DNA of 64,000 bases, from positions 662 through 64,661 of the forward strand of contig CADCEE010000003.1 in the NCBI GenBank assembly GCA_902800355.1, given 5' to 3'. This DNA is from an uncultured Erysipelotrichaceae bacterium. Its GTDB lineage: Bacteria; Bacillota_I; Bacilli_A; RFN20; CAG-826. Positions 13,511 to 59,894 of this stretch are shown one piece after another. The notes under the pieces are model-generated. The model did no database searches, had not been told where the DNA came from, and saw only the letters and a list, made by a program, of their open reading frames with translations. Both the position numbers and the translations under genes were made by a program. The stretch's first letter is position 1; each line of letters starts with the position of its first letter.

Positions 13511-14127
13511 GTTTAGATTACGAACAACAATATTATAGTAAAACTATAAAATATATTGCTGGCTGCGATGAAGCTGGTAGAGGCTGTTTATTAGGTCCGG
13601 TAGTAGCAGGGGCTGTTATTCTCCCTAAAGATTTTAAATGCGACTTAATTAACGACTCTAAGCAATTAAGCGAAAAACAAAGAGAGGAAGCTTATCAAAT
13701 TATTAAAGATAACGCGATCGCTTGGGCGGTAGCGGAAGTCTCTGCTGAAGAAATAGATAAAATTAATATTTTAAATGCTTCAAGAAAAGCAATGATTATG
13801 GCGCTTGATAAACTTAATCACAAAATAGATATGATTTTAACTGATGCGGTGAAGATGCAAACTGATTTACAATTTGAAGCAATAATCCATGGCGACGCTA
13901 AAGCAATGTGTATTGCCGCCGCTTCAATTATGGCAAAGGTTACTAGAGATCATATTTGTTATGAATTAGATAAAAAGTATCCAGCTTATCAAATTGCTAA
14001 ACATAAAGGATATGGCACAAAATTACATATGGAATTACTAAAAAAGTATGGCCCAATCAAGGGATTATATCGATTTAGCTATGCTCCTGTTAAAGCCTTT
14101 ACAATTGAAAAAATAAAACTTTTTTAA
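13507..14127 (+). CDS. rnhB: ribonuclease HII
   Basis: GCDEAGRGCLLGPVV, DSKQLS, HKGYGT. Confidence 0.92.
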   Translation: MSLDYEQQYYSKTIKYIAGCDEAGRGCLLGPVVAGAVILPKDFKCDLINDSKQLSEKQREEAYQIIKDNAIAWAVAEVSAEEIDKINILNASRKAMIMALDKLNHKIDMILTDAVKMQTDLQFEAIIHGDAKAMCIAAASIMAKVTRDHICYELDKKYPAYQIAKHKGYGTKLHMELLKKYGPIKGLYRFSYAPVKAFTIEKIKLF

Positions 14128-43542: not shown

Positions 43543-43619
43543 GCGCCATTAACTCAACTGGATAGAGTGTCAGACTTCGAATCTGGAAGTTGAGGGTTCG
43601 AGTCCTTCATGGCGCGCCA
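43543..43619 (+). tRNA. tRNA-Arg (anticodon TCG)
   Basis: Acceptor GCGCCAT/ATGGCGC, anticodon loop CTTCGAA, T-loop TTCGAGT, CCA. Confidence 0.88.
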
Positions 43620-43632
43620 CAATATTTGATTA

Positions 43633-43658
43633 GGCCACATAAAAGTGTGGTCTTTTTT
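43633..43658 (+). terminator. intrinsic terminator after tRNA-Arg
   Basis: ggccacat/gtgtggtc stem (two G-U), loop aaaa, T6. Confidence 0.65.
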
Positions 43659-43671
43659 AATTTTTTTAAAA

Positions 43672-43733
43672 TTTTTTCGCAAATTTTTGAAAATTACCAC
43701 TCTTATATATATGAGAGGTATTTTTATGAATTC
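43672..43733 (+). repeat. 62-nt promoter/RBS/start-codon cassette, copy B (drives the DUF1016 pseudogene)
   Basis: Matches 14130-14191 at 49 of 62 ungapped positions. Contains AAATTTTTGAAAATT (43681-43695). Confidence 0.7.
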
Positions 43734-44148
43734 AATTATCGACACTAAGTTCTTAAGCGAAATTAAGGAACTGGTTAACTCTGCCAAACAAAGAGTAGTA
43801 ACTTCAATCAACATCGCTATGGTTTATACCTATTATGAGATTGGAAGACGAATAGTGAAACAAGAATAGAAAGGGAATAATCGGGCTAAATATGGCAAAG
43901 ATCTTTTGAATAAATTGTCTTTTGAATTAACAAAAGAGTTTGGGACAGGTTATTCATTGACCAATTTAAAATTAATTAGAAAGTTCCATTTACTTTATAG
44001 CAATAAAAAAAGTCAACCACTGGTTGACCATTCTAAATTCTTGAATTTTAAAAATTATCCACTTACAAACGATAGACATCGATTCCTTCCAAATTTGGGT
44101 CTAAAAAGAAACGATGGAAATTTTCGCGAAAAGATAAAAAGAAAATGA
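43726..44148 (+). pseudogene. remnant of a DUF1016/YhcG-family PD-(D/E)XK nuclease gene (N-terminal part only, in-frame TAG)
   Basis: MNSIIDTKF...VYTYYEIGRRIVKQE-TAG-KGNNRAKYGKDLLNKLSFELTKEFGTGYSLTNLKLIRKF matches the YhcG N-terminal domain and resembles the intact paralog at 55950-56960. ORFs 43645-43869 and 43906-44148 share one frame, split by the TAG at 43867. The nuclease domain is absent. Confidence 0.65.
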
Positions 44149-44165
44149 AAATAATCAGAAAAAAA

Positions 44166-44217
44166 TTTAAATAAAAAAGAACGGCGACCCGAAACCTAAT
44201 TCGTACATAGCCGTTCT
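44166..44217 (-). terminator. candidate terminator for deoD (minus strand)
   Basis: agaacggc/gccgttct 8-bp stem (44178-44217). On the minus strand it is followed by ttttttatttaaattttt. Confidence 0.5.
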
Positions 44218-44284
44218 TCTATTAATAAAGTAGCATAGCTTATTGTTGTTATCAATGTTAATTATAATTTTTGAAATACAAAGT

Positions 44285-45004
44285 TTAGCAATAATGTTCA
44301 GCAGTCGCTATAGCGAGTTCAATCATTCTTGCTAAGCCAAAGGCTCTTTCTTCGGATGTGAGCTTTTCATCATGATTAATGAAGCTGTCTGTGACTGTTA
44401 ATAAGCATAATGCTCTTTTACCAAATCTAGCGGCGTTAGCGTATAAGGCATAAGATTCCATCTCCACACCCATCACGCCTAAGGCAGCCCATCTTTTCCA
44501 GATTTCTGGATCGTAATCATAGAAGACATCAGCAGCGAAGATATTTCCTCCGTGATATGGAATATTAGCTTTTTTTGCTTCTTCATAAGCGGTGACCATT
44601 AAATCAAAGTCTGCAACTGCAGAATATGTTCCATTTAATTTAAATTGACTCATCCAGTTACTATCAGTACAAGCTCCAGAACAAATTAATACATCTTTTA
44701 AACTGATGTTTGGTTGATATGTTCCACATGTACCTACTCTAATAATGATTTCTACTCCATAACTCATAAAGAGTTCACTAGAATAAATACCAATAGAAGG
44801 CATACCCATTCCTGAGGCCATAACTGATAATTTTTTATTATTTTTAGTGTATCCGGTATATCCTAAGATACCTCTAACATTTGTTACTTCTTTATAATCG
44901 TGTAAATAAGTTTCAGCGATCCACTTTGCTCTAATTGGATCTCCAGGCATTAAAACAACCTTAGCGAAATCGCCTTTTTCAGCATTTATATGAGGTGTTC
45001 CCAT
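44285..45004 (-). CDS. deoD: purine nucleoside phosphorylase DeoD-type
   Basis: MGTPHINAEKGDFAKVVLMPGDPIRAKWIAE, GMGMPSIGIYS, VEMES. Confidence 0.93.
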   Translation of the reverse strand: MGTPHINAEKGDFAKVVLMPGDPIRAKWIAETYLHDYKEVTNVRGILGYTGYTKNNKKLSVMASGMGMPSIGIYSSELFMSYGVEIIIRVGTCGTYQPNISLKDVLICSGACTDSNWMSQFKLNGTYSAVADFDLMVTAYEEAKKANIPYHGGNIFAADVFYDYDPEIWKRWAALGVMGVEMESYALYANAARFGKRALCLLTVTDSFINHDEKLTSEERAFGLARMIELAIATAEHYC

Positions 45005-47014: not shown

Positions 47015-47626
47015 ATGATTTTATTAACTCCTGGTCAAACTTTATATATATCTTTAGCAACAGTAGGAGTGCTATTAATCTTATTTTTATTCGCTTTTCT
47101 ATATTATAGAAATCGATATGTTAGAAAACACGCTAGAGAATTAACATATTTAAAACTTAGTAGAATATGTGAGCATAATGACTATTTATTATTAAATGAC
47201 TATCGTATTGATTTTGATGACTCTAATACAGGTCTAATTGATCACTTAGTGATTTCAAATAAATACATCATTATCATCAGTGTCTTTTCTATTTCTGGAG
47301 TGTTATCTGGAAAATTCCAAGGCGAAGAATTGGTGAATGTGAATAAAAAAGGAACTAGTATTGTTGCTAATCCAATTAATTACAACATTAACTTAACAAA
47401 AAGATTATCTTTGTTTAACGATTTAAATCATTCCTTCTTAAAAGGCTTAGTGGTCATTAATAATGACTCTGATATTAAAATTGAAGGACATAGTGACCAA
47501 TTCCAAATCGTTAAAAGAAAAGATTTAGCAAAGACTATTAAGAAATTTGATCAAGAGAATATCAAAAATCTCAATGAAGAAAGTATTGTTCGCTTTATTA
47601 ATAAATTAAACGAGGAGAATAAATAA
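47015..47626 (+). CDS. NERD domain-containing membrane-anchored protein
   Basis: N-terminal TM. NERD-like core HNDYLLLNDYRIDFDDSNTGLIDHLVISNKYIIIIS. Confidence 0.65.
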   Translation: MILLTPGQTLYISLATVGVLLILFLFAFLYYRNRYVRKHARELTYLKLSRICEHNDYLLLNDYRIDFDDSNTGLIDHLVISNKYIIIISVFSISGVLSGKFQGEELVNVNKKGTSIVANPINYNINLTKRLSLFNDLNHSFLKGLVVINNDSDIKIEGHSDQFQIVKRKDLAKTIKKFDQENIKNLNEESIVRFINKLNEENK

Positions 47627-49510: not shown

Positions 49511-49587
49511 GGCCCAATGGAGAAGCGGCTTAACTCATTGCCCTCTCAAGGCAACATTCACGGGTTCGAATCCCGTTTGGGTCACCA
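49511..49587 (+). tRNA. tRNA-Glu (anticodon CTC)
   Basis: Acceptor GGCCCAA/TTGGGTC, anticodon loop CTCTCAA, T-arm ACGGG TTCGAAT CCCGT, CCA. Overall close to the Bacillus tRNA-Glu layout. Confidence 0.88.
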
Positions 49588-49630
49588 ACTTAAAAAAATA
49601 GGATAATACAAATATGTATTATCCTTTTTT
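49585..49630 (+). repeat. hairpin repeat R1 (tRNA-Glu 3' CCA plus terminator)
   Basis: ccaacttaaaaaaataggataatacaaatatgtattatcctttttt. The 10-bp stem aggataatac/gtattatcct plus T-run also acts as a strong intrinsic terminator (49600-49630). Confidence 0.8.
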
Positions 49631-49746
49631 CTTTGATTACATCGAAATAGAAAGAAACATCGCTCATAAATACAACATTGAAGAAAGCATATTTAGAATG
49701 AAAAAGAGAGCCTGTGATTATGACTCTCATATTATTCAAAAATAAA

Positions 49747-50028
49747 CTACAGCTTTTTGATTTCTTCTTTTATAAAGTTGATGACATCATCTTTAGGGAT
49801 TCTTTCCAACTCTCTACATATATCATCAGCTTTTTTGTCGTTGTTTTTACGCTCAATTAAGTAATCAACTGTCACGTTAAATAAATCTGCTAATTGAATA
49901 AGCTGGTTGATTTTCGGCTCATATATTCCGTTTTCCCAATTGAGTATTGTTTGACCAGAAACACCAAGTTTGCTGGCTATTTCATTTTGAGTTAGACCAC
50001 TCTTATTTCGAAGTTCTCTTAGTCTCAT
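49747..50028 (-). CDS. XRE-family HTH regulator (controller-protein-like)
   Basis: LRELRNKSGLTQNEIASKLGVSGQTILNWENG. Divergent from the MTase operon. Confidence 0.85.
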   Translation of the reverse strand: MRLRELRNKSGLTQNEIASKLGVSGQTILNWENGIYEPKINQLIQLADLFNVTVDYLIERKNNDKKADDICRELERIPKDDVINFIKEEIKKL

Positions 50029-50050
50029 TTTCTTTTCCCTCTAGAAAAAT

Positions 50051-50133
50051 AATCAAAGAAACCTTGATTTCTTTAGTAGTAAAATCAAGTTAAACTTTGT
50101 AAAATGTAATAGAAATCAAGCATACCTTGGTTT
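50051..50133. promoter_or_regulatory. divergent control region with repeated AAATCAAG/CTTGATTT half-sites
   Basis: AATCAAagaaaccTTGATT (50051-50069). AAATCAAGcataCCTTGGTTT (50113-50133). Further copies: aaaatcaagtt and atttcaaggtttt. Confidence 0.5.
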
Positions 50134-50158
50134 TTAGATTGGATTTCAAGGTTTTCTT

Positions 50159-51055
50159 ATGAAGGAAAAAGAGTTAAGGGATATTTATAAAAGCAATGGA
50201 GAATTAAAGAACAGTCCTTTTAATACTGTTTATTTTAAAAGCTCCTCAAAAATGAAGGAGATTCCATCAAATAGTGTAGATTGCATTATTACTTCGCCTC
50301 CGTATTTCAATATCAAAGACTATTTTATGGATGGCAGACAAGAAAACGTTGTCACTAATGCAAATACAAATGATGTCGGAAATATTGATTCTTTTAAGGA
50401 ATACATAAGCAGTCTTGTTCCAATCTGGAAGGAATGCTTTAGAGTTCTTAAGCCTAATGGCAAGTTGTGTATCAATGTACCTTTGATGCCGATGATTAAA
50501 AAGGATATGAACACTCATTACAACAGAGACATTTTTGACATTCAAAGTGAGATACAAAACTCTATCTTGGCAAAAACTGATTTCTATTTAATGGACTTAT
50601 ACATTTGGAATCGTAAGAATTCAACCAAAAAGCTAATGTTTGGTTCTTATCCATATCCAGCTAATTTTTACGCTCAAAATACTACCGAGTTCATTACAAT
50701 CTATGTTAAAGACGGCAAACCATTACCTGTTTCTAAAGAAGACAAAGAGAAAAGCAAGTTAACCGAAAAAGAGTGGGTCGAATACACCAAACAAATATGG
50801 GATATTGCTATACCAAACAAAAGCGATTTAGCATTCGGTATCCACTCAGCTATCATGCCTGAAGAAATTGCTAGAAGATGCATTAAATTATTCTCATTTT
50901 ATAATGGCGTAGTTTTGGATCCGTTCACTGGCAGCGGAACAACTTTAAAAGTTGCTAAAGAATTAGGAAGACAATATGTCGGCTATGAACTATATGATTC
51001 TTATGCCGAAATAATACAAAAGAAATTAGATAGTGTTGAGGTGAAAAAGAAATGA
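50159..51055 (+). CDS. DNA methyltransferase, beta-class N4/N6 (SPPY)
   Basis: Motif IV IITSPPYFN comes before motif I VLDPFTGSGTT (order IV then I, D12/N4-N6 MTase family). Confidence 0.88.
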   Translation: MKEKELRDIYKSNGELKNSPFNTVYFKSSSKMKEIPSNSVDCIITSPPYFNIKDYFMDGRQENVVTNANTNDVGNIDSFKEYISSLVPIWKECFRVLKPNGKLCINVPLMPMIKKDMNTHYNRDIFDIQSEIQNSILAKTDFYLMDLYIWNRKNSTKKLMFGSYPYPANFYAQNTTEFITIYVKDGKPLPVSKEDKEKSKLTEKEWVEYTKQIWDIAIPNKSDLAFGIHSAIMPEEIARRCIKLFSFYNGVVLDPFTGSGTTLKVAKELGRQYVGYELYDSYAEIIQKKLDSVEVKKK

Positions 51056-51831
51056 TTCACCAAGACTCTATAGACTTAATGGACGTTTTTGAATTTCTAA
51101 AAGAAGTTAAAGACAAATCAGTTGATTTAGCTATTATTGATCCGCCATATAATCTTAATCAAGGAGATTGGGATACATTTAAAAGTCATAGTGAATTCAT
51201 GAAATTCACAACCAAGTATCTTAATTTAGTGATTAATAAACTGAAGGATAATGGATCTCTCTATATTTTTAATACAGCTTTTAACTCGGCTTTTATTTTG
51301 TCTTATTTAGTCGAAGCAGGTTTGGATTATAGAAACTGGATTGTTTGGTATAAAAAAGATGGTTTCAGTGCGTGCAAAAAGAAATATGTTAATAGCCAAG
51401 AGACTATTTTATATTTTACAAAATCAAAAAAAGACTTTGTCTTTAACTGCGATGATATAAGAGAACCATATTTATCAAGCGACAGAATAGCTGCTGCTCA
51501 ATCAAAGGGCATTTTGAAAAATGGGAAGAGATGGTTTCCAAATCCTAATGGAAAACTTTGCCCTGATGTTTGGGAGTTCACGTCAGTTAGACATACAAAT
51601 AAGAAAAATGGAAAAACGGTAAAACAATCACACCCTACTCCAAAACCTGAGCCAATGATTGAAAGAATGATAAAAGCAAGTTCTAACGATGGCGACTTAG
51701 TTTTGGATCTTTTCAGTGGTACAGGAACTACCGCTTATATTGCAAAAAAACTTAATCGACATTTTATCGGTTGTGAAAACAACAATGAATACTATCGAAT
51801 CATTAAGGAGCGACTGAAAAATGGGAATTAG
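51052..51831 (+). CDS. DNA methyltransferase, beta-class N6-adenine-like (DPPY)
   Basis: AIIDPPYNL then VLDLFSGTGTT. Overlaps the upstream MTase by 4 nt. Confidence 0.88.
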   Translation: MIHQDSIDLMDVFEFLKEVKDKSVDLAIIDPPYNLNQGDWDTFKSHSEFMKFTTKYLNLVINKLKDNGSLYIFNTAFNSAFILSYLVEAGLDYRNWIVWYKKDGFSACKKKYVNSQETILYFTKSKKDFVFNCDDIREPYLSSDRIAAAQSKGILKNGKRWFPNPNGKLCPDVWEFTSVRHTNKKNGKTVKQSHPTPKPEPMIERMIKASSNDGDLVLDLFSGTGTTAYIAKKLNRHFIGCENNNEYYRIIKERLKNGN

Positions 51832-53053
51832 GGAGAATCTTGCTAAAATCGATCCAAGCAAAAAATGTCTGCGCTTTTTAGGCGAAAGAATACTTGACGT
51901 TAACTATCGAGGAATTCAACTTTCTCAACACAATAGGTATGATGTGGTTTTTATAACAACAATGCTTACTGAAATGTATAATCTCGTTGGTCGCAACAAG
52001 ATGTTTATAAGAACTTCTGATCTAAGCAAAAGGCCATATAATTACCCAGAAGAAAAAGTTTATGCACAATATGTAAATAATCTATGTGCCAAACTTGAAA
52101 GATGTACTCAGGATTCGGTGAGAAAAAACTTCTTTGTTGATTTACATAGAATGGGTTTTATCTATAGATACAATGAACATGGATACAAAATTGGACCTTT
52201 TGAGAGAAGTCAGATTAAATCTGTTTCGCTGACCCCGCTTGGAGCAGAGCTTGTGAAAAACGCAGCTGATATTTTTCAAAGAAATTTAATTTATACAAAA
52301 GCGATTGACACTTTGACAAATGGCTTAGCAGATGAATTATTGGATGTGGTTTCAATAAACGATAAGTTAACCATGACAGAATTTCAATTTTTCATGTCTT
52401 TTATTGATCAAAAACTAAATGGTCATTTGTATACAAAATCTGAATTGGTTGATTATGTATTAGAATTTAGGAGTATGAGCGGATTTCAAAGACAAGCAGT
52501 GGTGGATATTGTTGCCGAGTATTGTGATCCTAAGAAATTTGGTGGAAGCAAATTGAACAAACGTGATTTCCACAACTGGAAAAATGAAACCCAGCAAATT
52601 TTTATGCTTCTGGACCAAACTGTTTTGTTTGAATTGAGACAAGAAAAACTTGTTATTCGTTTAGGTGAGGCCAGTTTATTTGACGACGATACAAAACTCA
52701 AGAGATCACTCAAAGAAAAAGAAGAATACTTTAAAAATCACGAAGTCAAAAAACAACCAGGATTCGAATTGCACCACGTTATACCTTTATTAACTGCTAA
52801 ATCAAAAAACGAATTTGCAGTTTTGGATGTTTGGGAAAACATGGTTTACATTGATGGTTATACACACTCCAAGATTACTCATACAAATAATAAAAATACA
52901 AACCTTTCGTTCGATAATGACGACATTGTGCTTACAGATCCAGCTGGTGTTGTTGACGAGATTGATTGTGAAAAAGACACAAATGTCATTTATAACACCA
53001 AGAACAAGGCAGTGATGAAAGAATTTAATGAATCGGCACTAAATGCTATATAA
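51821..53053 (+). CDS. putative restriction endonuclease with C-terminal HNH-like motif
   Basis: Overlaps MTase 2 by 11 nt (same operon). C-terminal GFELHHVIPLL...WENMVYIDGYTHSKITH resembles a beta-beta-alpha-Me/HNH site. I do not recognise the N-terminal 300 aa. Confidence 0.5.
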   Translation: MGIRENLAKIDPSKKCLRFLGERILDVNYRGIQLSQHNRYDVVFITTMLTEMYNLVGRNKMFIRTSDLSKRPYNYPEEKVYAQYVNNLCAKLERCTQDSVRKNFFVDLHRMGFIYRYNEHGYKIGPFERSQIKSVSLTPLGAELVKNAADIFQRNLIYTKAIDTLTNGLADELLDVVSINDKLTMTEFQFFMSFIDQKLNGHLYTKSELVDYVLEFRSMSGFQRQAVVDIVAEYCDPKKFGGSKLNKRDFHNWKNETQQIFMLLDQTVLFELRQEKLVIRLGEASLFDDDTKLKRSLKEKEEYFKNHEVKKQPGFELHHVIPLLTAKSKNEFAVLDVWENMVYIDGYTHSKITHTNNKNTNLSFDNDDIVLTDPAGVVDEIDCEKDTNVIYNTKNKAVMKEFNESALNAI

Positions 53054-53073
53054 AATTGGTTGGTGTAGAATTT

Positions 53074-53159
53074 GTTCCATGAGGTGTAGAATTGTTTAAA
53101 ATCTTTACACCCTGCCAACTTAATTAAATAGGATTGATACAAAATATTTATCCTTTTTT
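53074..53159 (+). repeat. hairpin repeat R2
   Basis: 53115-53159 ccaacttaattaaataggattgatacaaaatatttatcctttttt resembles R1. 53096-53121 and 53126-53143 recur in R3. The hairpin plus T-run (53130-53159) can terminate the R-M operon. Confidence 0.7.
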
Positions 53160-53168
53160 ATTTTGTGC

Positions 53169-53199
53169 TTGACCTAGAGTTAACTCTAACTTTTACAAT
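53169..53199 (+). promoter_or_regulatory. MerR-type promoter with 19-nt spacer and perfect dyad operator
   Basis: TTGACC (53169-53174), 19-nt spacer containing TAGAGTTAACTCTA (53175-53188), TACAAT (53194-53199). Confidence 0.75.
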
Positions 53200-53219
53200 A
53201 TAAATACGAGGTGATAAAT

Positions 53220-53669
53220 ATGAGTTATTCCATATCAGAAGTTGCTAAGATGCTTAATGTCTCAACATATACGATTAGATACTACGATAAAGAAGGATTA
53301 TTTCCTTTAGTAAAAAGAGTGAACGGCATACGTGTATTTGAAGATAAGGATTTTCCGTGGCTTAGAATGCTTAACTGTTTAAAAAACTTAAATATGCCGA
53401 TTAAGAAGATAAAAGAATATGTTGATCTAGCTTTAAAAGGTGATGAAACATTAAAGGAAAGATATCAACTTATCTTAGAACAAGAAGAAATTATTAAAAA
53501 ACAAATCAAAGAACTTAAATATTACAAAAAGCAAATCGATTTTAAAAAAGCATATTACGAAAAAGCTCTAGAAGCAGGAACAGAAGAAGTGGTGAAAGAT
53601 TGGCCAAATCCAGAAGCGACTTTAGATGTCGATGAATTGCCAAAAATAATAGGAGACAAAGATGAATAG
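53220..53669 (+). CDS. MerR family transcriptional regulator
   Basis: YSISEVAKMLNVSTYTIRYYDKEGLF HTH followed by a coiled coil. ATG at 53220 follows the gaggtg RBS. Confidence 0.88.
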   Translation: MSYSISEVAKMLNVSTYTIRYYDKEGLFPLVKRVNGIRVFEDKDFPWLRMLNCLKNLNMPIKKIKEYVDLALKGDETLKERYQLILEQEEIIKKQIKELKYYKKQIDFKKAYYEKALEAGTEEVVKDWPNPEATLDVDELPKIIGDKDE

Positions 53670-54102
53670 GCTATTAAGTTTTATTTTACCGGTACTTATC
53701 CTAACTAGTTGTAATAATAAAACAAATTCACCAGAAACACCTATAGATAAGGAAATAAATATGACACTATCAATTGATAATCAAGAATTAGACGTCTACT
53801 GGGAAGATAATGACTCAGTTAATGCTATAAAAGGGATATTACCATTAACTATTAATATGCATCAATATGGCGGTTTTGAACAAACAGGTTCTATTGGTCA
53901 AAGTATTGTTAGAAACGATTCGCAAATCAATGTAGTGCCAGGAGATATCGTTTTATATAACGGTAACGCTATTTCAGTTTTTTATAATAATAGCTCTTGG
54001 TCATATACTAGACTCGGACACATTAATCTAGATAATAGTGAACTAAATGTTTTGCTAAATAAATCGTCTGTTACGTTTGTTATAAAAGGAGAAGAAAAAT
54101 GA
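53662..54102 (+). CDS. lipoprotein, cyclophilin-like fold protein
   Basis: Lipobox ILTSC. The pattern LPLTINMHQYGGFEQTG...PGDIVLYNGNAISVFY resembles cyclophilin-like domain proteins often found next to flavodoxins. Confidence 0.55.
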   Translation: MNRLLSFILPVLILTSCNNKTNSPETPIDKEINMTLSIDNQELDVYWEDNDSVNAIKGILPLTINMHQYGGFEQTGSIGQSIVRNDSQINVVPGDIVLYNGNAISVFYNNSSWSYTRLGHINLDNSELNVLLNKSSVTFVIKGEEK

Positions 54103-54635
54103 AAAAAGTATTAATTATTTCAACAAGTATTAGAAGCGGAAGCAATTCTGAATTCTTAGCCCATGAATTTGAAAAAGGGGCAAAAGAAGCGGGGCATGAT
54201 GTTGAATTTATTTCTTTAAAGGATAAACAAATTGCCTTTTGTAGAGGCTGTTTAGCGTGCCAAAAAACTCATAAGTGCATTATTAATGATGACGCGATTG
54301 AAATTGCGGATAAGATGTGTGAAAGTGAAGTTATCGTTTGGGTGTCACCAATCTATTATTATGAAATGTCTGGTCAAATGAAAACCTTGATTGACAGATG
54401 CAATTCCTTATATTCAAGAGATTATAAATTTAAAGACATTTATTTCTTAACTGTTGCCGCAGAAGATGAACAATATGTTCCTATTAAAGCAATTAATGGC
54501 TTACAAGGTTGGATTGATTGCTTTGAAGGCGTGGAGCTTAAAGACACTTTATTTATCGGCGGAATGAACGGGCTTAACGAAATCAAAAATAGTGAAAAAT
54601 TAAAACAAGTATATGAAATGGGGAGGAATATCTAA
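54099..54635 (+). CDS. flavodoxin-like NAD(P)H-dependent FMN reductase family protein
   Basis: MKKVLIISTSIRSGSNSEFLA N-terminus, CRGCLACQKTHKC, SPIYYYEMSGQMK. Confidence 0.8.
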   Translation: MKKVLIISTSIRSGSNSEFLAHEFEKGAKEAGHDVEFISLKDKQIAFCRGCLACQKTHKCIINDDAIEIADKMCESEVIVWVSPIYYYEMSGQMKTLIDRCNSLYSRDYKFKDIYFLTVAAEDEQYVPIKAINGLQGWIDCFEGVELKDTLFIGGMNGLNEIKNSEKLKQVYEMGRNI

Positions 54636-55600
54636 TGCTTAAACTAGTTAGTGAATGGGATAAAGTTTTCCCAAAAGATGAAACTATCAATCATCAAAAA
54701 GTAACCTTTAAAAATCATTTTGGCATTGAACTTGCTGCGGATATGTATTGGCCAAAAGAAGGAAATAAGTTTCCCGCAATTGCGGTATCTGGTCCTTTTG
54801 GTGCGGTTAAGGAACAATTAAGTGGACTATACGCTCAAGAGATGGCTAAAAGAGGATTCTTAACCATTGCCTTTGATCCATCTTTTACTGGTGAAAGCGG
54901 TGGGGAACCACGATATATGAATTCACCAGATATCAACGTTGAAGATTTCCAAGCTGCAGTAGATTATTTATCAAATTTAAATAATGTTGACCACGATAAA
55001 ATCTCTATCATCGGTATTTGTGGTTGGGGTGGCATGGCTATTCAAACCGCATGCATTGATACAAGAGTTAAAGCGACAGTCGCTATTACTATGTACGATA
55101 TGTCTAGAGTGACTGGCAATGGCTATTACGATGAAGGAAATAATGAAGAAAGTAGATATCAAGCAAGAGTGGCTATTAATAATCAAAGAACATTAGATTA
55201 TAAGAATGGTAATTATAAACTAGGCGGAGGAGTAGTGGACGATCCAACTGACGCTCCTTGGTTTGTTAAACAATATTATGACTACTATAAAACTCCACGC
55301 GGATATCATGTTCGTAGTTTAAATAGCAATGGTGGATGGAATGTTACTGCAAGTACTTCTTTATTGAATACAAGATTATTTACCTATGCCTCAGAGATTA
55401 GAAGTGCTGTTTTAATTGTTCATGGTGAAAAAGCCCATTCTTTATATTTTGGTCAAGATGCGTTTAAGTTATTAAAAGGCGACAATAAAGAATTTTTATT
55501 AGTCAAAGACGCTACACACTGCGACTTATATGATGGTGGCATAAATCACGATAAGATTCCTTTTGACAAGATTGAAGGATTTATTAAAAAGAATATTTAA
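54635..55600 (+). CDS. alpha/beta hydrolase, dienelactone-hydrolase-like (Cys nucleophile elbow)
   Basis: GICGWGG elbow (G-x-C-x-G-G as in DLH). C-terminal HCDLYD-type His region. Confidence 0.72.
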   Translation: MLKLVSEWDKVFPKDETINHQKVTFKNHFGIELAADMYWPKEGNKFPAIAVSGPFGAVKEQLSGLYAQEMAKRGFLTIAFDPSFTGESGGEPRYMNSPDINVEDFQAAVDYLSNLNNVDHDKISIIGICGWGGMAIQTACIDTRVKATVAITMYDMSRVTGNGYYDEGNNEESRYQARVAINNQRTLDYKNGNYKLGGGVVDDPTDAPWFVKQYYDYYKTPRGYHVRSLNSNGGWNVTASTSLLNTRLFTYASEIRSAVLIVHGEKAHSLYFGQDAFKLLKGDNKEFLLVKDATHCDLYDGGINHDKIPFDKIEGFIKKNI

Positions 55601-55614
55601 ACTAATATTTATTC

Positions 55615-55720
55615 GTTCCAAAGGTCTCAAGTCATTAAAATATTTACACCATGCCAAATTCACTTATAATACTATGTATTATAAAATAGGATTGATACAA
55701 ACGTGTCAGTCCTTTTGTTT
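55615..55720 (+). repeat. hairpin repeat R3 (bidirectional terminator)
   Basis: 55635-55660 matches R2 53096-53121 at 23/26. 55684-55701 matches R2 53126-53143 at 18/18. The insert ataatactatgtattat resembles the R1 stem. The 11-bp stem aggattgatac/gtgtcagtcct (55688-55713) is followed by ttttgtttt. Confidence 0.7.
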
Positions 55721-55960
55721 TATTTCTTCAGCTTCAATAAAATCAACCCAGCTTCCATAGTCATAATTTCTTTTTGTTTCAGAAGTGTGAATTATTCTAA
55801 CGTAAGGAACTTTTCTTTTTATATCATCGGGCAATATTTCTAATGGATTTATATTATCAATGTTTTCTTCCTCAACGGTTGCCGTCTTGTACACTATTTG
55901 TATTCCATAAACGCTTCCTCTACCCCATTTTAAAATGAATCTTTTCATGTTATTTATCAT
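55706..55960 (-). CDS. hypothetical 84-aa protein, translationally coupled to the DUF1016 gene
   Basis: Overlaps the 3' end of the DUF1016 gene by 11 nt. I recognise no family. Coding status rests on ORF length and the operon context only. Confidence 0.35.
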   Translation of the reverse strand: MINNMKRFILKWGRGSVYGIQIVYKTATVEEENIDNINPLEILPDDIKRKVPYVRIIHTSETKRNYDYGSWVDFIEAEEIKQKD

Positions 55961-56960
55961 CGCTTTCTTCTAATTCATCAATTGTTGGAAGAGATGATTT
56001 GTATTTTTCTGGAATCAAATTTGATAATTGATATTCGGATATGCCAACTGGTAAACCTACCCCATTAATTATGTGTTTAGCTAATGAATTGTCTTTGTTC
56101 TTACAAACCAAAATTCCAACTGTTTTGTTATCTATTTCACCCTTTAGTGTTGCGTCAATAGCGGCGACATAGCCAATTAGTTGTCCCATATGTTCTGGCT
56201 TGAATTGACCAGTTTTAATTTCTATCACTACATAGCAATGTGCTTTAATGTTATAAAACAATAAATCGCAATACATTTCGGTGTCGCCTAGTAGCAAGCG
56301 AACTTCTTTTCCAACATACGCAAATCCATTTCCTAATTCCAAAAGGAATGATTCAATATGCTTTGTCAGTTCATCTTTTAACTCCTTTTCGTCGTAATTT
56401 TCTCTTATTGCTAGAAAATCAAACTCATAAGGATCCTTCATTATTTGATTTGTTATTTCGATATTAACAGATGGTAGCGATACTTTAAAATTATCTACAG
56501 TGTTTTGATTTCTTTCAAAAACATTTGCTAATATGCGACTTTCCAAATCATATCTAGACAAATTGTTTTCAACTGTTGTTTTGATATAGAACAAACTTTT
56601 CTCTATTGTCTTGCATTTATCAATGATGATTCTATGGTGCCCCCAAGGTACTAATAGCAATTGTTCCACAACTTGTGGGAAAATATGTTTATACAGAGTA
56701 TAAAATTTTTCCGCATATCTCAGATTTTGATGATTTAATCCTTTGGCGTTAGGAATAGCCTTTTTAAGTTCAATGCTCAACAAATCATAGAAATGATTTC
56801 CGTAACTTGCTTTGAATGATGTTTTAGAAATCTCTTTACCTAATTCGTAATAGAATTTAATTAGATTACTGTTGACATGGATAGCGGCTTTAATTTGAGC
56901 CTTTTTATAATTTTGGGAAAGGCTTTCAACCCATTTTTGAAATTTTGTGTCGATCAACAT
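55950..56960 (-). CDS. DUF1016/YhcG-family PD-(D/E)XK nuclease
   Basis: YhcG N-terminal domain (ELGKEI...YGNHFYDLLSIELKK...NLRYAEKFY) and C-terminal nuclease core GFAYVGKEVRLLLGDTEMYCDLLFYNIKAHCYVVIEIKTGQFKPEHMGQLIGY. taggagg RBS. Confidence 0.85.
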   Translation of the reverse strand: MLIDTKFQKWVESLSQNYKKAQIKAAIHVNSNLIKFYYELGKEISKTSFKASYGNHFYDLLSIELKKAIPNAKGLNHQNLRYAEKFYTLYKHIFPQVVEQLLLVPWGHHRIIIDKCKTIEKSLFYIKTTVENNLSRYDLESRILANVFERNQNTVDNFKVSLPSVNIEITNQIMKDPYEFDFLAIRENYDEKELKDELTKHIESFLLELGNGFAYVGKEVRLLLGDTEMYCDLLFYNIKAHCYVVIEIKTGQFKPEHMGQLIGYVAAIDATLKGEIDNKTVGILVCKNKDNSLAKHIINGVGLPVGISEYQLSNLIPEKYKSSLPTIDELEESDDK

Positions 56961-57002
56961 TGTTTTATCCTCCTATATCATCGACAAGGTGATTTAGAAG
57001 GA

Positions 57003-57332
57003 AATAAAAACCATCCAACCTAAAACACCTTTTGTAACTAACTGCTGATATCCCTATCAACCATAGTTACTGGTGTTTCATCACTGATTCAGTTGGATGG
57101 CCTCTGATTCAAATATTAACTATTTGTGTGGAGCGTGGATAATAATGTGTGAGCATTCATTGTTTTCTGCTCTCCTAACACATTAAGTTATCTTCTGGGC
57201 GATGCTTTCCACAATGCAAGATCCTAACACATCCAATCTTGCAGTCTCTATTAGGGTGCCCTATCGTGTACCTGCGTATGGTCGACTTTGTTTATAACTA
57301 GTTCATAGCGCCGATAGTCTGCTAATAGATAC
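57003..57332 (-). ncRNA. candidate structured RNA of about 330 nt (independent ncRNA or long regulatory leader of the DUF1016 operon)
   Basis: No ORF of 60 aa or more on either strand. The minus-strand promoter at 57339-57367 points into it. It has six hand-found helices, including three nested ones. It ends in a 90-nt hairpin (57011-57100, GGGA apical loop on the minus strand) followed by TTTTTATTT. Higher G+C than the flanks (27/60 in 57241-57300 by hand count). Confidence 0.4.
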
Positions 57333-57338
57333 TTTTTT

Positions 57339-57367
57339 ATAATAACATTTACTATAATTATTCTCAA
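57339..57367 (-). promoter_or_regulatory. promoter for the structured RNA / DUF1016 unit
   Basis: On the minus strand: TTGAGA (plus coordinates 57362-57367), 17-nt spacer, TATTAT (57339-57344). The first helix starts about 10 nt downstream. Confidence 0.45.
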
Positions 57368-57630
57368 TTAATTTATTAATAAATTATTGTATTAAATAAC
57401 ATTGAACATAGAGTGCTACATGGAATTTGGGTCACAGGTTGTGACCTAATTTCATTTATTAATAAATTATTGTATTTAAATGATATTTGAATATATGTTG
57501 CTCCACGGAATTTTGAGAACAGGTTGTTCCCCAATTTCATTTATTAATAAATTATTGCATTTAAATGATGTTTGAATATATGACGCTCCATAGAATTTGG
57601 TGCACAGTCCGTGCACTAATTTCATTTTCA
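57364..57630. repeat. three tandem 83-85 bp repeats plus a truncated fourth start
   Basis: The conserved block atttattaataaattattg starts at 57371, 57454 and 57539, with a partial copy at 57624. Each unit ends in a hairpin: ggtcaca/tgtgacc (57430-57446), gagaaca/tgttccc (57515-57531), gtgcac/gtgcac (57600-57616). Confidence 0.9.
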
Positions 57631-57648
57631 AAGCAAAAATTAAATTCT

Positions 57649-57680
57649 AGCAATCTTGAGCTATATACAATTGCTTTTTT
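57649..57680. terminator. bidirectional terminator-like hairpin
   Basis: agcaat/attgct stem, 15-nt loop, flanked by ttttttaaaaaa. Confidence 0.55.
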
Positions 57681-57692
57681 AAAAAATGTTTA

Positions 57693-57735
57693 AGAGGGTT
57701 GATAGATAACATCGCCCTAGCCTTTTTTATTTCTT
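57693..57735 (+). repeat. possible fourth, degenerate copy of the R-type hairpin repeat
   Basis: agagggttgata...ccttttttatttcttt shares the AGGxTTGATA 5' arm and the CCTTTTTTATTT tail with R2/R3. Folds as aggg(t)-gat/atc-g-ccct plus a T-run. Confidence 0.35.
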
Positions 57736-57768: not shown

Positions 57769-58398
57769 ATGAAATATCTTGTTATTATCTCAACTTTATT
57801 TGTAATTGGCTCATTAATTGGCTGGGTTATTGAATTATTCTTCAGAAGATTTGTTTCGCAGCACAAATGGATGAATCCTGGTTTTTTAATGGGACCATAT
57901 TTACCAATATATGGCTTTGGAGTCATTGTCTTATATGCGGTTAGTAATATTCCTTTAGGAATTACTAATCACGCAGTTGATATTGTTGTTCGTATTCTAA
58001 TTATCGGAGTAGGGATGACAGTTGTGGAATTTTTAGCGGGATTAATATTTATTAAAGGTTTAAAAGTTAAGCTTTGGGATTATAGTGATCGTAAAGGAAA
58101 TATTATGGGTATTATTTGCCCTTCGTTTTCTTTAATTTGGTTAGCGGTTGGATCCCTATATTATTTCCTAATTAATCCGTTTTTAGTAAGTGGAATTTCC
58201 TGGATTAGTGAAAATTTAATTTACACTTATTTTGTAGGAGCAGTTATAGGAGCGATGGTGGTGGATTTTGCTTATTCAATCCACTTAGCCACTAAAGCAA
58301 AATATTATAAAGAACTTGCTGACTTAAGATTTGAAGACTTCAAAAAAGAATTACGAAATAGAATTAAACAACTCCGTAAAACAAAAGAAGATATCTAG
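57769..58398 (+). CDS. polytopic membrane protein (putative ABC-transporter type IV / DUF1113-like family)
   Basis: IGSLIGWVIELFFRR...NPGFLMGPYLPIYGFG pattern typical of that family, from memory. About 6 TM. Confidence 0.55.
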   Translation: MKYLVIISTLFVIGSLIGWVIELFFRRFVSQHKWMNPGFLMGPYLPIYGFGVIVLYAVSNIPLGITNHAVDIVVRILIIGVGMTVVEFLAGLIFIKGLKVKLWDYSDRKGNIMGIICPSFSLIWLAVGSLYYFLINPFLVSGISWISENLIYTYFVGAVIGAMVVDFAYSIHLATKAKYYKELADLRFEDFKKELRNRIKQLRKTKEDI

Positions 58399-58442: not shown

Positions 58443-59894
58443 ATGACGAAAACAAAGAAAATCTGCTTGTTATTTGTTTTAGCTAGCTTAGTATCATTTT
58501 CTTCATGCTCTACTACTAGCAATAATCCAGAAATAGTGGATCCAGGCGACCCAGTCGACCCTATTGAACCTGTTGACCCAGTTGAACCAGATGATTACAA
58601 AGTAATTGAAAACATTTCTAAAAGAATGCCAGCGGAATTTGAACCCGTTAGTAGAATTAAAATGTGTTATCCAAATAACATGCCTTTAAGCGTCTATAAA
58701 GAAATTGCTAAAGATAACAAAATTCTTTTACTTGTTAATCCTGATAGCCGAAATAAATCGAGAATTAATGAAGCAAAATCATCTTTTAATGATGAAGGAA
58801 TTAATTTAGACAATGTGACATTTGTTGATATGAATATAGATGACGATTATAGCTATTGGGTAAGAGATTTTTCTCCGTTTTATGTTTTTAATAATTTAGA
58901 TCTATCAATTGTGGATTTTAATTATAATCGTCCATATAGAACAGAGCAAAATGACGTTTCTATTAAGCTTTCTAATTATTTAGATATGAGTTATACAAAA
59001 ATGAATCTCACTCATACAGGTGGCAATTTAATGCAAGACGGAAGGTTTACTGCTTTTAGTGATGATTTAGTGGTCCAAGAAAATAGTAATAATGCGACTA
59101 AAGTTAAAACGAGTATGAAAAATTATTGTGGAGTTGATAACTATGCTATCACTATTGATCCACAAGGTGATTATATCGCCCATATAGATTGCTGGGGGAA
59201 AATAGTAGCGCCTGATAAGATAATCGTGGCTAAATTACCGGCTACAAATTCTCGCTATGATTATTATGAACAAGTGGCAGAAGAATTAGGAAAATTGAAA
59301 TGTATTTATGGATATAATTACCGCATTTATCGAATTGATGAACCAGGTGGAGAAGTTGTTGCTCCATATACTAATTCATTAATTGCGAATAAACACGTCT
59401 ATATGCCTTTAGGAGATAATTCTTCCTATAATCAAAAGGCTCTCAAAGTCTATCAAGAAGCTTTACCAGGATATATAGTTCATGGAGTTAAAGGGTATGA
59501 TAGTTCCTCATATAATGCTTTTTTAAATACTGACGCGCTTCATTGCCGCACTCATGAGATTCCTAATAGCAATATGCTTTTTATTGATTCTAGAGAAGTG
59601 CTTAATGGGACGGTTGCTATAGCAGAAAAATATTTAGTGAAAACAAATATAGTTAGCTATGCTAAACAAGACATTAAAAACGTTGATATCTTTTACTCTA
59701 TTAATGGCGCTGATTATATAAAAGATGAAATGATACAATTTAAAGAAACATCAAATTATTTATATACATTTTCTAATCTTAATAGTGGTGACTCGGTCAA
59801 ATATTATATTGAAGCAAGTGATGAAGCAAATAATAAAAATGTGGATCCTACTTGCGGTAAATTAGATCCACATTCATTTACTATTTCTTCTTAG
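58443..59894 (+). CDS. lipoprotein with agmatine deiminase/peptidyl-arginine deiminase-like (PAD_porph) domain
   Basis: Lipobox SFSSC. Pro/Asp/Val linker. MPAEFEPVSRIKMCYP, WVRDFSPFYV, HIDCWGKIV, catalytic-Cys region DALHCRTHE. Extra C-terminal domain. Confidence 0.75.
   Translation: MTKTKKICLLFVLASLVSFSSCSTTSNNPEIVDPGDPVDPIEPVDPVEPDDYKVIENISKRMPAEFEPVSRIKMCYPNNMPLSVYKEIAKDNKILLLVNPDSRNKSRINEAKSSFNDEGINLDNVTFVDMNIDDDYSYWVRDFSPFYVFNNLDLSIVDFNYNRPYRTEQNDVSIKLSNYLDMSYTKMNLTHTGGNLMQDGRFTAFSDDLVVQENSNNATKVKTSMKNYCGVDNYAITIDPQGDYIAHIDCWGKIVAPDKIIVAKLPATNSRYDYYEQVAEELGKLKCIYGYNYRIYRIDEPGGEVVAPYTNSLIANKHVYMPLGDNSSYNQKALKVYQEALPGYIVHGVKGYDSSSYNAFLNTDALHCRTHEIPNSNMLFIDSREVLNGTVAIAEKYLVKTNIVSYAKQDIKNVDIFYSINGADYIKDEMIQFKETSNYLYTFSNLNSGDSVKYYIEASDEANNKNVDPTCGKLDPHSFTISS

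Follow-up and report, generated by a model that had tools for sequence, protein, structure and literature searches.

What has placed a run of accessory genes directly behind a tRNA gene when no integrase lies beside them? The question is raised by a locus in a 64-kb stretch of DNA (the window, examined over its whole length) from an uncultured rumen member of Bacilli, whose nearest public genomes are metagenome-assembled genomes labelled Bacillales or Bacilli bacterium (UBA2450, RGIG3320; 96–98% identity of glutamyl-tRNA synthetase, GluRS). In the window, a tRNA-Glu gene is followed by modules of cargo genes separated by related repeats, here termed R1 to R4. A sequence-only reading of this DNA had described four hairpin repeats dividing three cassettes, and had taken the region to have grown by serial accretion with att-like duplication. 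We consider it rather likely that between 49588 and about 57735 at least three integrase-less cassettes form an array, having entered serially at the terminal CA of the tRNA-Glu gene; a serine recombinase supplied in trans was probably responsible. The parts of the array are as follows.

49511–49587, + strand: tRNA-Glu gene (anticodon CTC; ARAGORN and Rfam), directly 3' of the GluRS gene
49586–49587, + strand: terminal CA of tRNA-Glu, the putative insertion point (left half of attB)
49586–49633, + strand: R1, attL-type junction that also acts as the tRNA-Glu terminator
49634–53061, + strand: cassette 1, type II restriction-modification module (Pfam, PADLOC)
53062–53159, + strand: R2, complete attP-type site and best-preserved internal site (nhmmer E = 2.6e-16)
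53160–55609, + strand: cassette 2, MerR/hydrolase module (Pfam and NCBIfam)
55610–55726, + strand: R3, decayed attP-type site (nhmmer E = 7e-15)
55706–57692, − strand: cassette 3, DUF1016/PDC-S02 module (Pfam, PADLOC, Rfam)
57693–57735, + strand: R4, degenerate terminal hairpin (AGGGTTGATAG..CCCTAGCCTTTTTTATTT), just 5' of the gene for a CmpB-like membrane protein

The relationship of the repeats was confirmed by alignment and pattern searches. R1 (49585–49630) and R2 (53115–53159), said to share roughly 40 of 46 positions, gave 40 identical columns over 46 and 45 nt, and their common pattern, CCAACTTAANNAAATAGGAT, occurred exactly twice in 64 kb, while shuffled sequence yielded 0.34 matches even at 3 mismatches. 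The two further blocks reported for R2 and R3 were found where they had been placed: a 26-mer identical at 23 of 26 positions (53096–53121 and 55635–55660; 0.00 matches in shuffles at ≤3 mismatches) and the exact 18-mer AAATAGGATTGATACAAA, which starts at 53126 in R2 and 55684 in R3 and is present nowhere else in the window. None of the three R search patterns recurred elsewhere in the 64 kb. R1 is composed of the tRNA CA, a 12-nt spacer (ACTTAAAAAAAT), a hairpin (AGGATAATAC..GTATTATCCT, 49600–49625) and a T run. R2 opens with two direct repeats, GGTGTAGAATT(T)GTT, which as read from the sequence start at 53062 and 53083, in agreement with the sequence-only reading; these are followed by a box (TTGTTTAAAA), a left arm running to the CA at 53116–53117, a 12-nt spacer, a hairpin beginning with AGGATTGATAC at 53130, and a T run. 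The left-arm core of R2 was identical to that of L150 (L numbers denote the loci and contigs compared). R3 retains its first direct repeat (GTTCCA); compared with L095 and L105, its second repeat and one half of its box are deleted. Its left arm ends in the CCA at 55654–55656 and its consensus hairpin occupies 55688–55713. The insert in R3 that had been likened to the R1 stem was indeed present between CCA and hairpin, as about 20 nt (TATAATACTATGTATTATA) resembling ATAATAC..GTATTAT. In a terminator scan, R1 and R3 both scored as terminator-like, each with an 11-pair hairpin ahead of a T run. The tRNA sequence recurring in R2 and R3 amounts to 3 nt (CCA), and to up to 6 nt in the sites of relatives. 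Each of the remaining eight tRNA genes in the window has its own, different hairpin terminator about 12 nt after the CCA; the R hairpin is thus not the generic tRNA terminator of this genome.

R4 is weak when taken alone, and none of the tools listed it with the repeat family. Its assignment as a fourth copy is supported by comparison with L004, in which similarity to the window returns at 57710, inside R4, with an R-like hairpin (ATAGGCTGATGC..CATTAGCCTTTTTT) at the equivalent spot, and both sequences then enter a TAGCCTTTTTTATTTCTTTATT tail ahead of CmpB. Intact hairpins occupy the position of R4 before CmpB in L106, L161, L288 and L300. Just past the R1 hairpin (49640–49681), the hexamers ACATCG, ACATCG and ACATTG are spaced at 18 nt, and in L083 and L232 threefold phased repeats of other sequence stand some 100 nt 3' of the hairpins; repeats that bind protein may be present on the right side of the R site as well.

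To see where the window departs from its relatives, 80 loci around GluRS homologues, drawn from one-genome-per-species collections, were compared. Upstream of the tRNA gene, the gene order PNP, 135-aa open reading frame (ORF), DAC, NUDIX, NERD, GluRS was kept in close relatives. In L002, L004, L005, L007, L009 and L018, nucleotide similarity extended to the final tRNA base (49587) and no further; in L051 it ended within about a base of that position. Gene content 3' of tRNA-Glu differed in almost every relative: L003 retained R1 and the adjoining helix-turn-helix (HTH) gene and then carried other methylase and nuclease genes, and in L004, the closest relative with a long contig, similarity returned only at 57710, with CmpB alone in common. 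With similarity ending at 49587 and variable content beyond it, the relatives do not carry an identical 8-kb block. The gene for a PAD_porph deiminase-family protein (PAD, 58443–59894) matched nothing in the 80 related loci; given this absence and the sharing of CmpB alone with L004, the variable stretch probably reaches about 59.9 kb. The region delimited by the sequence-only reading (49585–57735) was therefore upheld as variable, and its right limit probably has to be moved to about 59894. CmpB and PAD are probably further variable units and not core flank, and the array probably extends beyond R4. A second conserved type of flank, the nested hairpin CGCAGGTTAATACTCGCTACAAAATTACTGATTAATCAGTAAGAAACACGATTGTAGCGAGTTTTATTTT, stands directly after tRNA-Glu in L002, L007, L009, L012, L016 and L051; among close relatives, either this flank or the R type is found. 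The second flank may represent the original terminator of the gene, or else a site belonging to a different family of elements.

In relatives, the R site is a composite of about 110 nt. On the left, 2–5 direct repeats in phase are succeeded by a TTGTATCAAAA box and some 15 nt leading to CCA/CA; on the right are a 12-nt spacer, a hairpin (AGGATTGATAC...GTCAGTCCTTTTTT; in relatives AGGATTGATAC-loop-GTGTCAGTCCT) and a T run. About 60 nt of conserved non-hairpin sequence precede the hairpin. The direct repeats are a conserved, element-specific part of the site, alike within one element and unlike between elements (GTGTTCGG, GGTGTAGAA, TGCTGCG, TGTAGCG); they may be recombinase arm-type sites, as the sequence-only reading had suggested for those of R2. 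The portion from the CA onward also trails tRNA-Glu itself in the window, L011, L014 and the distant L063. When the window and 81 related loci were searched with an R profile (nhmmer), the matches lay downstream of tRNA-Glu, with one weak exception (L036). The clearest array was that of L011, where tRNA-Glu and four further R sites fall within 3.6 kb, with units of 0.3–1.7 kb and direct repeats starting from a few to about 20 nt past a stop codon. Upstream of a PNP_UDP-like cassette gene in L011, a GC-rich, structured-looking stretch (13600–13880) matched no Rfam family at gathering score.

The exact hairpin pattern was also present on 4 IMG/VR viral contigs and on at least 120 metagenome contigs from rumen, human gut and digesters. 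Among the matches listed, it followed a tRNA CCA in 31 of the 87 occurrences scored, with nine kinds of tRNA as partners (Glu, Leu, Val, Pro, Ser, His, Gln, Thr, Trp) and a spacer that was nearly always 12 nt (15 nt after tRNA-Val); most of the remaining occurrences were preceded by 2–5 phased direct repeats, box and CA. What the DNA 3' of the hairpin encoded was varied, either cargo or early genes of phages (DUF2800 nuclease, AAA_24, helicase, GmrSD, DUF5131/radical SAM, restriction-modification), and the gene just 5' of the direct repeats was, by reading of the sequences, cargo (Fic, AAA ATPases, HNH protein, transporters). Phage-type junction DNA compared with GenBank phages gave tRNA-Ser matches only, a protein search with the DUF2800 gene returned only relatives at ≤38% identity, and literature searches aimed at the R site family found no paper describing it. 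In L085 and L115/L149, 25–35 nt of a tRNA 3' end stand in place of the left arm. The junctions of L162 (about 4800–4880) and the reverse complement of L085 (about 8700–8780) are identical except for 35 nt, which comprise the second direct repeat and left arm in L162 and a tRNA 3' end (T arm, acceptor strand, CCA) in L085; a single crossover at CA does not explain this swap. A tRNA-like fold of the left arm was considered and set aside, as no consistent pairing across copies was seen by eye.

The position at which the halves of the site are exchanged is indicated by junctions with unrelated DNA. Every site is anchored 12 nt before the hairpin with CA directly to the left, and in L051, L138 and L288 the left halves are fused to unrelated right-hand DNA exactly at this CA: to another terminator in L051, to non-hairpin DNA in L138 and to the 3' end of a recombinase gene in L288. 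When dyad symmetry was scored over 31 sites of the direct-repeat type, the best axis lay between the C and the A of CA (summed score 9.4, versus ≤6.3 at any other axis). Complementarity was 0.5–1.0 at 17–25 nt from this axis and ≤0.5 at 0–12 nt, and the inverted motifs, TTGTATCAA facing TTGATACAA at 17–25 nt out, define a site of about 52 bp around the central dinucleotide. The attP of large serine recombinases is laid out as an imperfect inverted repeat of about 50 bp centred on a 2-bp crossover. The geometry of the R site appears to fit this layout, with the crossover predicted at CA.

No recombinase that could act on these sites was encountered in the array itself, as the sequence-only reading had stated. 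Pfam searches of the sixteen main ORFs between 49.7 and 63.8 kb found no integrase, transposase or relaxase domain, no Phage_integrase-family domain was found from 45.6 to 63.8 kb of the window, and the sole tyrosine recombinase found in the window was an Xer-like gene at 17.2–18.1 kb. Likewise, Pfam analysis of about 75 variable-region or R-flanking ORFs found no integrase beside arrays; these ORFs encoded restriction-modification, GmrSD, Fic/RhuM-like proteins, AAA ATPases, acetyltransferases, transporters and surface proteins. The scanned array ORFs of L003, L004, L011, L051, L063 and L014 held no integrase. ORFs of 380–400 aa located 5' of direct repeats were candidates for integrases by size and were judged to be cargo by reading the sequences, no family search having been made.

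Autonomous elements of the SCC and ssrA-island type have by their att site a large serine recombinase (Resolvase, Recombinase and zinc-ribbon domains), commonly in company with another. Such an arrangement was found in relatives (L013, L083, L219, L232, L285 and the L288 group) and not in the window. L013 has the same chromosomal site as the window: a tandem pair of serine recombinases lies on the reverse strand about 230 nt past tRNA-Glu(ctc) and an R1-like hairpin, within a prophage-like element that also encodes a tyrosine recombinase. In L288–L291, L294, L296 and L297, a serine recombinase on the reverse strand directly follows the CA of the left half, and in L142 the recombinase reading frame extends up to the junction. 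Recombinase pairs are located 0.7–2.4 kb upstream of the site in L083, L232 and L285, the site of L219 lies about 3.9 kb upstream of a recombinase pair, and fragments or full copies of serine recombinases occur near the site in L153 and L085/L162. When the L083 serine recombinase was searched against IMG/VR and 80 loci were kept, R-like sites were found only in L206 (the same as L083), L232, L219 and L285, the last with a variant hairpin; since most homologues of this recombinase lack an R-like site, the link holds for a subset of that recombinase family. In these comparisons, R1 to R3 proved homologous to sites beside serine-recombinase genes in prophage-like and island-like DNA. At a possible second hot spot, 3' of tRNA-Arg, L004 (1–2432) has a phage-like segment with a serine recombinase and a tyrosine recombinase 99% identical to that of the L013 prophage.

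Individual units were found in different orders and neighbourhoods between genomes. The DUF1016 cassette, third in the window, is the first one behind tRNA-Glu in L138 and is closed there by a standard direct-repeat/box/CA arm; L163 has the cassette too, and L011 and L004 have remnants. A cassette encoding a 148-aa HTH/zinc-ribbon protein keeps one R site amid different neighbours in L011, L293/L295 and L298–L300. CmpB in the L288 group directly follows the hairpin of tRNA-Glu(ttc) and has its own direct-repeat/CA arm, and in L288 and similar contigs CmpB and a small ORF are bounded by that hairpin and arm. Junction-to-junction distances in the relatives scored were 0.3–2.9 kb. Taken together, breakpoints, CA junctions, homologous sites by serine recombinases and reshuffled cassettes support the division into three cassettes by repeats and the serial accretion with att-like duplication that had been read from the window alone. 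One CmpB protein, P0029 (88% identical to that of the window), was residue-for-residue the same in three neighbourhoods (L288–L297), always 30–50 nt past an R-type hairpin.

These features can be accommodated by a simple scheme. Each incoming circle would carry one attP-type site, with repeats, box and about 15 nt to CA on the left and 12 nt and the hairpin on the right. Recombination at CA would leave the tRNA joined to the hairpin of the element, producing R1, and would bring the left half of the element in front of whatever previously trailed the tRNA. Where the previous flank was already a hairpin of the same family, the internal junctions (R2, R3) would again look like a full attP. The tRNA junction would remain a usable target, so that new cassettes would stack by the tRNA and older ones would be pushed outward. 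The recombinase, of the large serine type and often a tandem pair, would be supplied by a related prophage or island. With R2 near consensus and R3 and R4 decayed, mobility at the present day may be limited, the array being now partly fixed.

Several points weigh against this reading. A tblastn search with three large serine recombinases found no match in the 64-kb window. Exact look-up of the GluRS and CmpB proteins (L287 left out) brought up no empty site, excised circle or different arrangement in this species, and contigs with identical GluRS or CmpB proteins had the same order wherever the array was reached. CmpB homologues gave further arrays and no strictly empty tRNA-Glu(ctc) site. Degeneration is seen in R3 and R4, and the composition profile, with a G+C content of 0.30–0.34 throughout, gave no GC or skew signal of foreign origin. 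To our knowledge, an attP–attL pair is normally no substrate for a serine integrase; stacking would thus require relaxed recognition of the right half or a non-directionality like that of CcrAB. We also know of no serine-integrase attP that requires phased direct repeats, and paired direct repeats are typical arm sites of tyrosine integrases, as in phage mv4 at the tRNA-Ser 3' end. The search for tyrosine recombinases consisted of a three-seed profile and Pfam on roughly a hundred ORFs, so that misses are possible; in 1.9 Mb the profile matched only its seeds (L013, L004 and the Xer-like gene of the window), which for so narrow a profile is weak negative evidence.

The same architecture could accordingly have been built by a heterobivalent tyrosine integrase acting in trans in the manner of mv4, with the direct repeats as arm sites and exchange starting at CCA. 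Tyrosine integrases are the classical agents of integration at tRNA genes (Islander); the attP of mv4 carries pairs of 11-bp arm sites, as direct repeats, in both arms, L083 and L232 have further phased repeats, a second set, some 100 nt 3' of the hairpin, the tRNA 3' end of 25–35 nt that replaces the left arm in L085 and L115/L149 resembles a classical tyrosine-type attP, and the L013 prophage does encode such an enzyme. Yet inverted core-type motifs are missing at 0–12 nt from CA and those at 17–25 nt are too distant for core sites around a 7-bp overlap, the repeats of the left and right arms differ in sequence within one element, and no tyrosine recombinase adjoined any of about 90 R-bearing loci (in the narrow search), while serine recombinases recur there. 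We regard this alternative as unlikely, and from neighbourhood and geometry a serine recombinase is the more likely enzyme. It is more doubtful still that the three blocks are deletion remnants of full-size prophages or islands integrated in turn, with no cassette-sized unit ever having moved. In favour of such remnants, L013 has a complete prophage with recombinases at the same site, the HTH protein encoded next to R1 is similar to RstR/CI repressors of phages, decay is seen in R3 and R4, and the DUF1016 remnants of L004 and L011 show that deletions occur here; random deletions would nevertheless not yield units of 0.6–1.2 kb that recur with the same boundaries beside different neighbours, nor the precise bounds observed, with a hairpin on the left and repeats from a few to about 20 nt past a stop codon (R2; L011; L293).

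Exchange without a dedicated recombinase, by homologous recombination through the shared hairpin segment of 50–90 bp, seems improbable. Adjacent junctions do share 45–90 nt of near-identical sequence (spacer, hairpin, following motif), and 45–90 nt is about the minimal length for RecA-dependent exchange. Left halves, however, meet non-homologous DNA exactly at CA (L051, L138, L288), the box and repeats of the left half are conserved although homology-driven exchange would not need them, and serine recombinases are associated with the junctions. That the R repeats are merely related intrinsic terminators, or a repeat like the repetitive extragenic palindromic (REP) sequences, placed between modules by chance is hardly credible and has been largely refuted. 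R1 and R3 do score as terminators, and every tRNA gene of the window has a hairpin about 12 nt after its CCA; but the family is confined to the tRNA-Glu array in the window and, apart from the weak match in L036, likewise in the 81 related loci, the hairpin is preceded by about 60 nt of conserved non-hairpin sequence, and the junctions coincide with similarity breakpoints between genomes. The hairpin had thus been rightly distinguished from a generic, scattered terminator, the window copies being found only at the tRNA-Glu array. Two further candidates were rejected. Ends of a Tn7-like or other transposon were dismissed because every unit comes with its own copy of the hairpin and no transposase was found in the Pfam-scanned variable-region ORFs; genes of IS3 type are confined to the L288-group element. 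A module of the Xer/dif kind (pdif, or an integrative mobile element exploiting Xer, IMEX) was dismissed because the inverted motifs here are about 34 nt apart and not 6, the layout of dif being 11-6-11 bp.

The closest precedents are the ssrA islands of Dehalococcoides and the composite islands of the staphylococcal cassette chromosome (SCC). The ssrA islands form tandem arrays in which a CcrB-like and a second serine recombinase lie on the reverse strand beside attL (McMurdie et al. 2011, PMC3146451), and fifteen of them lack an integration module and were read as cis-mobilizable elements built by accretion (PMC3146451). Both systems are tandem, lie 3' of a small stable-RNA gene and have units each bounded by a short insertion-site repeat, and the reverse-strand arrangement of recombinases is also seen in L013 and L288. 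The ssrA islands differ in entering at the tmRNA T-loop, with a repeat of 20 bp, whereas the R array uses the terminal CA of a tRNA with almost no duplication of the RNA gene; they are multi-gene, whereas units of R arrays can be single genes (0.6–3.5 kb); and the R site has phased direct repeats, doubles as tRNA terminator and occurs in a different host phylum. In SCCmec, pseudo-SCC and the Enterococcus cassette chromosome, CcrAB serine-recombinase pairs insert one element after another at the rlmH 3' end, and SCC arrays include recombinase-less cassettes between repeated integration sites, thought to be mobilizable in trans. R arrays would share with SCC the tandem serine-recombinase pairs and the serial insertion at the 3' end of one conserved gene; SCC differs in its protein-coding target and much larger cassettes, and we know of no direct-repeat/box/hairpin architecture in SCC sites.

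Related logic is found in systems driven by tyrosine recombinases. The cis-mobilizable elements (CIMEs) of Streptococcus (ICESt1/ICESt3 family) are att-flanked elements without integrase or transfer genes that occur in tandem with related elements at one site (PMC3146451). The units of the R array similarly have att sites related to those of autonomous elements and no recombination or transfer genes inside; Streptococcus CIMEs are larger, rely on tyrosine integrases and target a protein-coding gene at its 3' end. Tycheposon islands of Prochlorococcus are tRNA-adjacent and grow by repeated integration, newer elements pushing older ones inward (Hackl et al., bioRxiv 2020.12.28.424599); of 937 tycheposons, 910 use a tyrosine recombinase, and partial tRNA copies flank them (bioRxiv 2020.12.28.424599). 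They resemble the R array in accretion logic, degraded remnants and cargo for defence or adaptation, and differ in usually carrying their own integrase and replication genes. A classical tRNA island of the Islander type differs as well, since the window has neither a tyrosine integrase near the array nor a displaced tRNA 3' fragment (CCA only).

With integrons, and with clusters of attC sites lacking integron integrases (CALINs), the array shares small, often single-gene units that end in a structured recombination site; like integrons, it would show stacking by a fixed primary site, with the newest unit presumably nearest, and it has reshuffling between genomes and defence-rich cargo. Integrons differ in having IntI beside attI, whereas no such gene lies at the R array, whose primary site is the tRNA end, and R cassettes carry their own promoter-like sequences and regulators. 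The boxes of attC are paired R''/L''-L'/R' (RYYYAAC...GTTRRRY); by eye only, the conserved parts of the R site do not match them and no attC symmetry was evident. The R array works in an integron-like way at the population level and is not a member of the integron family. A more far-reaching proposal, which we hold only tentatively, is that uncultured Bacilli of rumen and gut possess an integron-like cassette system at tRNA 3' CCA ends, driven by serine and not tyrosine recombinases, which reshuffles single-gene cassettes. The right half-site would then mimic the tRNA terminator, leaving the tRNA junction still target-like and the far junction still attP-like; a CcrAB-like pair would insert, excise and reshuffle cassettes, many of them for defence, at tRNA genes for Glu, Leu, Ser, Pro and others; and, as an accessory component of such sites, the phased direct repeats with their element-specific sequences would be new.

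Compared with known accretion, what is probably new here is the combination of the terminal CA of tRNA genes as target, cassette-sized units, a composite site that doubles as terminator and, probably, a serine recombinase. The array in the window is one instance of a conserved composite site on at least 120 rumen, human-gut and digester contigs, and the R site marks where accessory and anti-phage genes enter behind tRNA genes of poorly known uncultured Bacilli. If a serine recombinase is indeed responsible, the accretion known from SCCmec and ssrA islands would extend to tRNA ends and integron-sized cassettes, the tag of box, CA, 12 nt and hairpin would find cargo boundaries in fragmented metagenome assemblies, and new pairs of serine integrase and att site with tRNA-end specificity would become available. 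Should a serine recombinase prove not to be involved, the site family and its element-specific direct repeats would still need explaining.

The genes and other features within and beyond the cassettes are listed below.

49747–50028, − strand: Xre/RstR-like HTH gene, cassette 1 (Pfam)
50159–51055 and 51052–51831: two N6/N4 DNA methyltransferases, cassette 1 (Pfam; PADLOC MTase_II)
51821–53053: restriction enzyme of 410 aa, cassette 1 (PADLOC REase_II, E = 1.9e-118)
53211–53669: MerR regulator, cassette 2 (Pfam and NCBIfam)
53662–54102: cyclophilin-like protein, cassette 2 (Pfam and NCBIfam)
54099–54635: flavin mononucleotide (FMN) reductase/flavodoxin-like protein, cassette 2 (Pfam and NCBIfam)
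54635–55600: alpha/beta hydrolase, cassette 2 (Pfam and NCBIfam)
55706–55960, − strand: 84-aa ORF, cassette 3
55950–56960, − strand: DUF1016/YhcG PD-(D/E)xK nuclease, cassette 3 (Pfam; PADLOC candidate defence family PDC-S02, E = 8.8e-124)
57025–57137, − strand: COG3943 RNA (RF02941), cassette 3 (Rfam, 92 bits, full-length)
57138–57351, − strand: conserved leader extension, cassette 3
57402–57656, − strand: three tandem units of 85 nt, cassette 3 (repeat search)
57769–58398, + strand: CmpB-like membrane protein, also present in L004
58443–59894, + strand: PAD_porph deiminase-family protein, absent from the 80 related loci

The cargo of the cassettes is predicted to be mainly defence, namely the type II restriction-modification system and the DUF1016/PDC-S02 candidate. 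Directly 3' of R2 and ahead of the MerR gene, a promoter of the MerR type was recognized by eye at 53168–53199 (TTGACC, a 19-nt spacer holding a palindrome, TACAAT), so that cassette 2 would bring its own regulated promoter; a promoter scan with spacers of 16–18 nt did not list this candidate, whose spacer is 19 nt.

Around the tandem repeats of cassette 3, an Rfam search at permissive threshold matched only the COG3943 RNA. The approximately 215 nt beyond this RNA (57138–57351) are relatively GC-rich and conserved in L138, within an alignment of 82% identity; given this conservation, the structured leader may exceed the Rfam model. Each of the 85-nt tandem units holds a hairpin followed by a TTGTATTTAAA box-like motif, and the stems vary between copies yet pair (GGTCACA/TGTGACC, GAACA/TGTTC, GTGCAC/GTGCAC). 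Related hairpin units occur in L004 (12776–12896), L011 (12869–12908) and L115 (about 1856–1901), and in L138 a standard direct-repeat/box/CA arm replaces the tandem units of the window. The DUF1016 deletions in L004 and L011 both stop just before GGAATTT and the hairpin of a tandem-type unit.

Elsewhere in the window, the NERD-domain gene between NUDIX and GluRS (47015–47626) has 82–90% identity in the closest relatives, compared with 95–98% for GluRS and NUDIX, and 44–50% in more distant relatives, compared with 70–88% for its neighbours. A possible second hot spot lies 3' of tRNA-Arg (43543–44285), where the window has a short DUF1016_N remnant only; upstream of PNP, L002, L003 and L018 carry a full DUF1016 gene (26–29% identity).

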